IMG/VR virus record: IMGVR_UViG_2880372215_000005
Length of the DNA: 56,474 bases
Direction: 5' to 3' (one strand)
DNA from: a virus
Taxonomy: Duplodnaviria; Heunggongvirae; Uroviricota; Caudoviricetes
Shown here piece by piece: positions 36,175 through 37,322 of this stretch. The notes beneath the pieces are model-generated. The model had not been told where the DNA came from. It saw nothing but the letters and a program-made list of their open reading frames with translations, and ran no database searches. Each line of letters opens with the position of its first letter. The stretch's first letter is position 1. Both the position numbers and the translations under genes were made by a program.

Positions 36175-36707
36175 TTATCTGTCGATTCCCCAGCACGCCA
36201 GCGCGCTCTCCTGGTCACGACGGGATACCTGACCGTAACAGTTATTTGAGCGAATACGGCAGTCCCTGCCACCGTCCTTAATCCACCAGCGAATCGCTTC
36301 GCAGGCACCTTTTCGATCTCCTGCATTAATCCGTCTGTAAAACGTCGACGGGAAACACTTACCGGGGCCAATGTTGTACGGACAGAATGACGCGATCCCC
36401 GCTTTCTGGGGTTCGGTCAGCGGCACTCTGATGTTTTTCTCCACCCATGCCAGCGCCTTATCACGCTCAATGGCGTTAACCCGGTCGCATTTTTCCTTCG
36501 ACAGCTTCATGCCAGGAATAACAGGCTTACCATCCCCCGGGTGGCTCCACGGCAGATGGTCCAGATACCCGCACCATCACGGTATGCTGTGGTGTGGTTA
36601 CCTTCCTTTTCATCCAGAAACTGGTCGAGGATTTCAGGCGCAGACGCCCCTGCACCAATCAGCGCCAGAACGGCAGCCGACAGGCCGTATCTGATTTTTG
36701 CGTTCAT
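36175..36707 (-). pseudogene. R: SAR endolysin (phage-21-type lysozyme R), interrupted by a +1 frameshift in a G-run
   Basis: N-terminal frame 36507..36707 (MNAKIRYGLSAAVLALIGAGASAPEILDQFLDEKEGNHTTAYRDGAGIWTICRGATRG) and C-terminal frame 36175..36510 join as ...ATRGDGKPVIPGMKLSKEKCD... if one G is removed near 36525. Confidence 0.7.
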
Positions 36708-36757
36708 GGATATTTATCAGGGTTTATCGATTTCAAATCCCTGGATATGTTAAGTCT

Positions 36758-37105
36758 TCAGGCCAGCGGTGGAGTCTTCAGAGAACCCGTAATTATTCCC
36801 GGTAGTTTTCCTCTGTAGGTTATCAACACATCCTGCGCCTCTAAAATTACGGGACGCTTTTCCGGTAACGGACCATCCCCTTCACATAACCCGGCAGCAA
36901 CATCCATGAAAAACTGCTTCGCCTGCTTTTTCGCCTCAGCTTCGTAAAACTCCAGCGTGGCACCTTCAGTACGGTCAAGACTAATCGCCACATCTGGCAA
37001 CAACAGTGACGGATACCCACCAATTTCCGGTGCCACAGTAACAGTAATCTTATCCGGGTAATTATTTATCCCTTTAACAACCAGTTCGTATTTTTTCTTC
37101 ATCAC
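36758..37105 (-). CDS. YdfR-like protein (DUF1327-type) between holin and endolysin
   Basis: 115-aa ORF in the same position as ydfR in the Qin lysis cassette. Confidence 0.45.
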   Translation of the reverse strand: MMKKKYELVVKGINNYPDKITVTVAPEIGGYPSLLLPDVAISLDRTEGATLEFYEAEAKKQAKQFFMDVAAGLCEGDGPLPEKRPVILEAQDVLITYRGKLPGIITGSLKTPPLA

Positions 37106-37106
37106 T

Positions 37107-37322
37107 TTACTCTCCCCGCGCCGCCTTACGCCGGTCTTCTTTAATCTTGAAATACAGGTTCGTCAGATATGTCAGCAGCCCAAACAGCAGACTCCCCAGC
37201 ACGCCTATCGCCACCCACTGGGACGGAGAGACTTTGTCCAGCAGCTGCAGTAACCAGTATCCCGTCCCCACCGCTGACGTGGTGTATGACACACCCGTTG
37301 TGATTTTTTCCATCTGGTACAT
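37107..37322 (-). CDS. S: pinholin (phage-21 S-like class II holin)
   Basis: 71 aa [71 protein letters not shown]; dual start M..M; two TM segments. Confidence 0.8.

Follow-up and report, generated by a model that had tools for sequence, protein, structure and literature searches.

The lysis genes identified on the minus strand of the 56,474-nucleotide window, which is the whole stretch of DNA that was analysed, form the ordinary lysis cassette found among the late genes of an Sp9-like lambdoid prophage in E. coli O157:H7, with an endolysin gene that is broken by one missing G. The run of five G at which the reading frame is lost is judged, with a probability of roughly three in four, to be a one-base undercall of a run of six G (G6) in a low-quality and apparently chimeric assembly, and the organism most probably has an intact 177-aa endolysin gene. 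The cassette itself is already known, and hundreds of O157:H7 genomes that have been sequenced contain an exact copy of it.

Organization of the lysis cassette

The genes of the cassette are arranged in the order S, ydfR, R, an ant-like gene, orf48 and Rz/Rz1 (Table 1). Directly upstream of the holin gene, an esterase-like gene with the Pfam domain order DUF1737-SASA-DUF6645 was identified. In a scan of positions 34600-37500 for promoters, one promoter-like site was found where 2.6 were expected, and in a terminator scan of the same region the hairpin upstream of S, recognised at the level of a consensus, was the only notable site. A search of the window against Rfam gave no match within the lysis cassette; all matches were located elsewhere.

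Table 1. Features of the lysis cassette in the 56,474-nucleotide window
Feature	Positions	Strand	Basis or remark
Terminator-like hairpin with T-run	37361..37389	-	Between the upstream esterase-like gene and the holin gene; consensus match only
Holin S, 71 aa	37107..37322	-	PF04971 'Bacteriophage P21 holin S', E 8.5e-33
YdfR-family protein (DUF1327), 114 aa	36758..37102	-	PF07041, E 5.4e-46; RefSeq 'YdfR family protein'
Endolysin N-terminal ORF, 66 aa	36507..36707	-	PF00959 profile positions 2-26
Run of five G (five C on the plus strand), frameshift site	36534..36538	-	
Endolysin C-terminal ORF, 111 aa	36175..36510	-	PF00959 profile positions 34-125, E 8.5e-14
Antirepressor-like gene, 189 aa	35335..35904	-	P22_AR_N and ORF11CD3 domains
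48-codon ORF (orf48)	35189..35335	-	'Hypothetical protein' in related genomes
Rz, inner-membrane spanin, 155 aa, intact	34714..35181	-	PF03245, E 4.9e-50
Rz1, outer-membrane lipoprotein spanin, 61 aa, intact	34776..34961	-	Embedded in Rz, other frame

A sequence-only reading of this DNA had named a pinholin, a SAR endolysin and spanins, and these identifications are right as far as they can be predicted from the sequence: the cassette is predicted to encode a P21-family class II holin of the pinholin type, a SAR-type GH24 endolysin and a pair of spanins. The arrangement of the genes had been described differently. Holin and endolysin had been taken for an adjacent pair, while the 114-aa YdfR/DUF1327 gene, which begins four bases after the holin stop codon and had gone unmentioned, lies between them and within the very interval assigned to the pair. 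Rz/Rz1 are located not next to the endolysin gene but about 1 kb downstream of it, past the antirepressor-like gene and the 48-codon open reading frame, and 270 non-coding bases (35905-36174) separate the endolysin gene from the antirepressor-like gene. The antirepressor-like gene and the 270-bp gap between endolysin and Rz are kept in Sakai Sp9 and Sp10 and in many other genomes.

The holin and the spanins were correctly recognised as intact. For the latter, a match to the Rz family was found together with a lipoprotein gene embedded out of frame, as in two-component spanins. Rz1 contains the lipobox-like motif LVVSAC and a Pro-rich body, and its Sakai counterpart, ECs_1787, is annotated as a lipoprotein precursor.

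The holin

The holin matches PF04971 with 112.6 bits at a cut-off of 26 and covers profile positions 1-63 of 64, which bears out its earlier assignment to the phage 21 type. Its DNA is identical to the gene for WP_000284517.1 in strain AR-0428, and at the protein level it is 75% identical to what we take to be the sequence of S21. Two hydrophobic segments are predicted, a weak first one (residues 7-28, Kyte-Doolittle mean 0.75, 50% G/A/S/T) and a stronger second one (residues 36-57, Kyte-Doolittle mean 1.53), followed by a charged C-terminal tail that ends in ...RRKAARGE, a predicted pattern which corresponds to that of the P21 S family. By its family membership the holin is of the pinholin type and may, by analogy, form small depolarising holes through which folded endolysin would not pass.

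A dual start had also been proposed for the holin. Met codons are indeed present at positions 1 (37322) and 4 (37313). However, the extension between them, Met-Tyr-Gln, contains neither Lys nor Arg, whereas the S21-71 antiholin of phage 21 is marked by one additional positively charged residue (PMC9636201). Since the extension is devoid of this positive charge, a functional dual start appears doubtful from the sequence. In a near-identical holin allele, which belongs to another prophage, in strain FRIK804, the corresponding residues are Ile-His-Gln-Met, so that the first Met is absent. A regulatory RNA structure at the holin start was not indicated by folding, the fold being no better than those of shuffled sequences (z = 0.77).

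The endolysin gene and its frameshift

The lysozyme gene (36707..36175) is divided into two open reading frames of 66 and 111 aa, both of which match PF00959, and a single continuous reading frame is thus not present in the window. The minus strand at the break reads ...GCC ACC CGG GGG ATG GTA AGC..., with the five G forming the run listed in Table 1. The 66-aa frame consists of 58 native residues and eight out-of-frame residues, after which a TGA follows; the 111-aa frame corresponds to residues 67-177 of the intact protein and starts with the native Met67. The ATG of the C-terminal frame overlaps the TGA of the N-terminal frame in an ATGA at 36507..36510.

The window gene, with its five G, is 533 nt long, and every near-identical intact gene has 534 nt and six G. 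When one G is added to the run, the DNA becomes identical to the intact 534-nt allele, which encodes a 177-aa lysozyme (WP_000992137.1), and when one G is removed, a Trp codon and a stop codon appear two codons later. Because insertion restores the intact allele and removal leads to a stop, the lesion is one missing G. The break at a G-run was therefore rightly seen in the sequence-only reading, but its nature was reversed there: it had been ascribed to a single extra G near 36525, about ten bases away from the actual run, and reads with one fewer G had been named as the observation that would speak for an intact gene. This test points the wrong way, since the intact gene needs one more G. The comparison with intact homologues that had been suggested confirms that a frameshift is present, with the opposite direction (533 nt versus 534 nt). 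Over the 534 positions, 533 are shared with Sakai Sp9, EDL933 and many other genomes.

The SAR-like character that had been noticed at the N-terminus was found again in residues 7-24 (YGLSAAVLALIGAGASAP), for which a Kyte-Doolittle mean of 1.40 and a G/A/S/T content of 61% were calculated. This weakly hydrophobic predicted segment resembles the SAR segment of R21-type endolysins and is free of Cys, the first Cys of the protein being residue 52. A Cys-free SAR segment sets the regulation of the R21 type apart from the disulfide-isomerisation type of P1 Lyz. Glu35, Asp44 and Thr50 are all located upstream of the frameshift, with eight residues between Glu and Asp and five between Asp and Thr, a spacing which we take to be that of the catalytic triad in R21-type enzymes. 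The repaired endolysin matches the phage 21 lysozyme R21 (3HDE) with E 5.5e-18, in an alignment that extends from residue 9 to residue 174 and thereby takes in the N-terminal segment, and the DLP12 enzyme RrrD (4ZPU) with E 1.1e-17.

State of the window as an assembly

For 31.8 kb, the window can be compared to the prophage of its nearest genome, AR-0428. Over this length no substitution and ten single-base indels were identified, nine of them deletions in the window, of which seven concern a G. Apart from that in the endolysin gene, the deletions are located at 29176, 29153, 27907, 27858, 27652, 27598, 26440 and 26155. The one insertion is an extra T in a T-run at 49721, which in the related prophage lies between a repressor-like and a cro-like gene. 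When the 18 kb around the endolysin gene were searched in 5,426 complete E. coli genomes, nine genomes tied for the top score; the best matches all exceeded the window in length by 3 bases, and the 25 best-scoring records by 2-3 bases.

Near position 24651, the sequence passes abruptly from the major-tail gene back to the large terminase gene, so that the head module is present twice in tandem, with a second copy of 7.3 kb. The first copy is located at about 24651-32000 and the second at about 15300-24650. In the second copy, 43 further deletions, four insertions and 42 substitutions are present. A 300-base probe across the junction was covered in none of the 5,426 complete E. coli genomes, while its halves match separately; the junction is therefore probably a misassembly. 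The portal gene is broken in both copies by dense single-base deletions (18000-22000 and 26000-29200), and the same losses, G6 to G5 and GGG to GG, occur in both (27652/20352 and 27858/20557). Altogether, 52 deletions and five insertions were counted. Repeats of about 162 nt are also present within the portal region.

The two ends of the window were found to belong to separate prophages. Positions 1-15000 match the tail region of Sakai Sp10 and the ompN flank at 100%, and the part with the integrase end (24651-56474) matches an Sp9-like prophage at the ompW site. In the Sakai genome, Sp9 extends to about 1.816 Mb, and Sp10 follows from about 1.922 Mb in the same orientation. From these separate matches, the window looks chimeric, joining two different O157:H7 prophages.

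The five-G allele in public genomes

With an 81-base probe, the 5-G allele was found in 10-11 of 810 matching records, and in about 99% of the matching records the best match was a continuous 6-G copy. Genomes that hold the endolysin sequence contain a median of four copies. The 5-G allele occurs in at least two prophage contexts: one with methylase and DUF6645 genes, in SS52 and 86-24, and one with TerB, DUF3927 and SASA, in 2-6-2, FRIK804 and AUSMDU00002545. In one GenBank genome, it is present in two prophages at once. IMG/VR holds one contig with five G, in a different, SS52-like context, and no allele with seven G was found in that database.

Where relatives can be checked, the 5-G allele is not common to them, as seen for the 86-24 siblings and for SS52 compared to SS17 and TW14359. 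Assembly 86-24/6564 has five G, and its sister assembly 86-24/6565 has six at the same locus, with other frameshifted neighbours in both. The same 66-aa truncated frame was also observed in GCA_051590825.1 and GCA_033660325.1, together with many split neighbours (Q, DUF968, capsid, portal). In total, 12 contigs encoding exactly this 66-aa frame were identified, and none of the ten that were compared is the window. The NCBI pipeline has annotated the same 5-G allele as 'lysozyme, frameshifted' in ten complete genomes. In two of these, FRIK804 and AUSMDU00002545, the annotation of the 10-kb neighbourhood around the allele contains no further frameshifted gene, with one short partial open reading frame flagged as incomplete in both neighbourhoods.

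As a control homopolymer, an unrelated run in the portal gene (27652) was used, at which the window likewise has five G in place of six. This change is sporadic as well (28 of 1,062 records), and at least five of the ten assemblies with the endolysin 5-G allele also carry it, often in a different prophage: 86-24/6564, 2-6-2, AUSMDU00002545, AR-0430 and ATCC 43889. The hypergeometric probability of this overlap is about 8e-6. From the sporadic occurrence of the 5-G allele and its overlap with the portal undercall, it follows that G6-to-G5 calls track assembly quality and not lineage.

Origin of the missing base

An artefact of the assembly is favoured as the origin of the missing G, because the comparison with AR-0428 yielded indels in the complete absence of substitutions, which is unlike real divergence, because the window is chimeric in appearance, with a unique junction and 43 deletions in its duplicated head module, and because the 5-G allele is scattered over assemblies and prophage backgrounds, to the point that the two 86-24 assemblies disagree, and co-occurs with the portal undercall in the same assemblies. 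Against an artefact stands the distance of the endolysin indel, which is located about 7 kb away from the main indel cluster in the portal gene. The same observations bear on a real deletion of one nucleotide, by which replication slippage in the G6 run would have made the endolysin a pseudogene of this prophage. Such a deletion is possible, though unlikely. The window as given does have five G and a split gene, the annotation as a frameshifted lysozyme recurs in complete genomes, and some of the public 5-G alleles could be genuine slippage mutations, since the neighbourhoods in FRIK804 and AUSMDU00002545 are free of other frameshifted genes. Runs of six G are naturally prone to slippage, decay of prophage genes does occur in polylysogens, and with a median of four copies per genome the loss of one would be buffered. 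In this case, the prophage would not lyse its host alone, and near-identical endolysins of co-resident lambdoid prophages could complement it in trans. However, a real deletion does not account well for the pattern of indels, for the chimeric structure of the window or for an allele that is not shared by relatives and tracks a second undercall. The sequence-only reading had concluded that lysis would be compromised if the frameshift were real; the sequence does contain the lesion, but a homopolymer undercall is better supported than a lysis defect.

Readings in which the run of G has a function of its own have much lower probabilities. If the G6 tract were a true hypermutable switch, individual lambdoid prophages in polylysogenic O157:H7 would lose the ability to lyse by slippage from six G to five and regain it by the reverse event, a -1 slip of tRNA-Gly on the five G would yield small amounts of protein with exactly the wild-type sequence, and the sporadic 5-G alleles in at least two prophage backgrounds would be real; this reading is very improbable. 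Slightly fainter is the chance of a functional recoding or contingency site, at which the exact wild-type protein would occasionally be recovered, through such a tRNA slip or through slippage in transcription or replication, so that a throttled or phase-variable endolysin results. In the sequence CGG GGG ATG, a -1 shift on GGG would re-pair with GGG and continue with GAT GGT AAG, the native Asp-Gly-Lys, and alleles with five and with six G both exist in the databases, without a 7-G allele in IMG/VR. On the other hand, the codons ACC CGG GGG ATG do not contain an in-phase slippery heptamer of the type X XXY YYZ, a two-frame arrangement is not conserved among the homologues, nearly all matching records have a continuous copy as their best match, and the 5-G alleles correlate with error-prone assemblies; a stimulatory structure is not required by the data. 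Close to negligible is the probability that the two frames, coupled by the ATGA stop-start overlap, encode a working split endolysin. The ATG in the overlap is the native Met67, but the overlap is explained by the shifted frame running into an internal Met codon, and the intact homologues each consist of one polypeptide chain. The 111-aa piece has no export signal and would stay in the cytoplasm, whereas the N-terminal piece with the SAR segment would be in the membrane or periplasm, which makes a working split enzyme unlikely.

Comparison with known lysis systems

In Sakai, the prophages Sp9 and Sp10 (ECs_1782-1787 and ECs_1962-1966) contain the same order of genes as the window, namely S, a ydfR-like gene, R, an antirepressor gene, a small open reading frame and Rz/Rz1. 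For the ompW-site prophage of AR-0428, the DNA of holin, ydfR, ant, orf48 and Rz is identical to that of the window cassette. The missing G is the only difference between the window and the cassette of AR-0428, Sp9 and Sp10. Unlike in Sp9 and Sp10, the surroundings of the cassette in the window are a probable chimera of two prophages.

The window cassette and that of phage 21 (pinholin S21-68/S21-71, endolysin R21 with PDB entries 3HDE and 3HDF, and Rz/Rz1) have a holin matching PF04971 in common, in both cases with two hydrophobic segments of which the first is weak and rich in Gly, Ser and Thr. The alignment of the window endolysin with R21 spans the entire protein and takes in both the N-terminal segment and Glu35, Asp44 and Thr50, but the window endolysin is a distant relative, roughly 35% identical as judged by eye, and its Arg-Gly-Asp loop at the frameshift site is an insertion of three residues relative to R21. 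In contrast to phage 21, the cassette of the window is interrupted by the additional genes ydfR, ant and orf48. By the phage 21 paradigm, the N-terminal SAR segment would serve for export of the endolysin, which would stay in the inner membrane in an inactive form until accumulated holin depolarised the membrane; the depolarisation would then release and activate the endolysin, and the spanins would subsequently disrupt the outer membrane.

A DUF1327/YdfR gene between a P21-type holin gene and a lysozyme gene is also found in the Qin cryptic prophage of E. coli K-12, where we take the order to be essQ, ydfR, rrrQ and rzpQ; the likeness to the window noted here is one of gene arrangement. Qin is a decayed remnant, whereas the window cassette is complete except for the gap of one base.

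In Stx phages and related STEC phages, such as 933W and H-19B, lysis modules with P21-family pinholins and SAR endolysins have been described downstream of a gene for a NanS-p-type esterase (PMC10462455). The window likewise has an esterase-like gene directly upstream of the holin, and its endolysin gene has 95-97% DNA identity to those of Stx phages. In contrast to Stx phages, no stx genes were found among the open reading frames and annotations of the window that were examined.

Other features of the window

Outside the cassette, several further elements were identified. Two phage-borne tRNA genes are located on the minus strand at 39852-39925 and 40009-40081 and correspond to tRNA-Arg and tRNA-Ile in related genomes. 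Between these and the esterase-like gene, two small RNAs were matched in Rfam: the anti-GcvB sRNA AgvB at 39470-39529 on the plus strand, with 56.6 bits against a gathering score of 56, and STnc100 at 39531-39739 on the minus strand, with 175 bits. A match to the hok/sok toxin-antitoxin RNA is present at 44708-44857 (minus strand).

Virulence-associated cargo is found in the early region, where a 252-aa open reading frame at 45046-45804 (minus strand) corresponds to the gene of AR-0428 annotated as 'AcfC family adhesin Paa'. On the Sp10 side, the cargo at 1924-3975 (minus strand) and at about 9987-10514 (plus strand) comprises three genes for NleG-family type III effectors and a gene for a Cu/Zn superoxide dismutase, which were placed by mapping onto the Sakai annotation.

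Implications

Because the window is indel-rich and, as it appears, chimeric, support from reads would be needed before any frameshift or pseudogene call made in it, that in the portal gene included, is given a biological meaning. Public records already list the 5-G allele as a pseudogene of a frameshifted lysozyme, and little biological weight is attached to it here. If the deletion were nevertheless real, its product would presumably retain the SAR segment and the catalytic residues but lack the remainder of the fold, and this prophage, as one among many in the same host, would rely on its neighbours for a near-identical endolysin. The deletion would then deserve minor attention in the study of prophage decay and of complementation in trans between STEC prophages.
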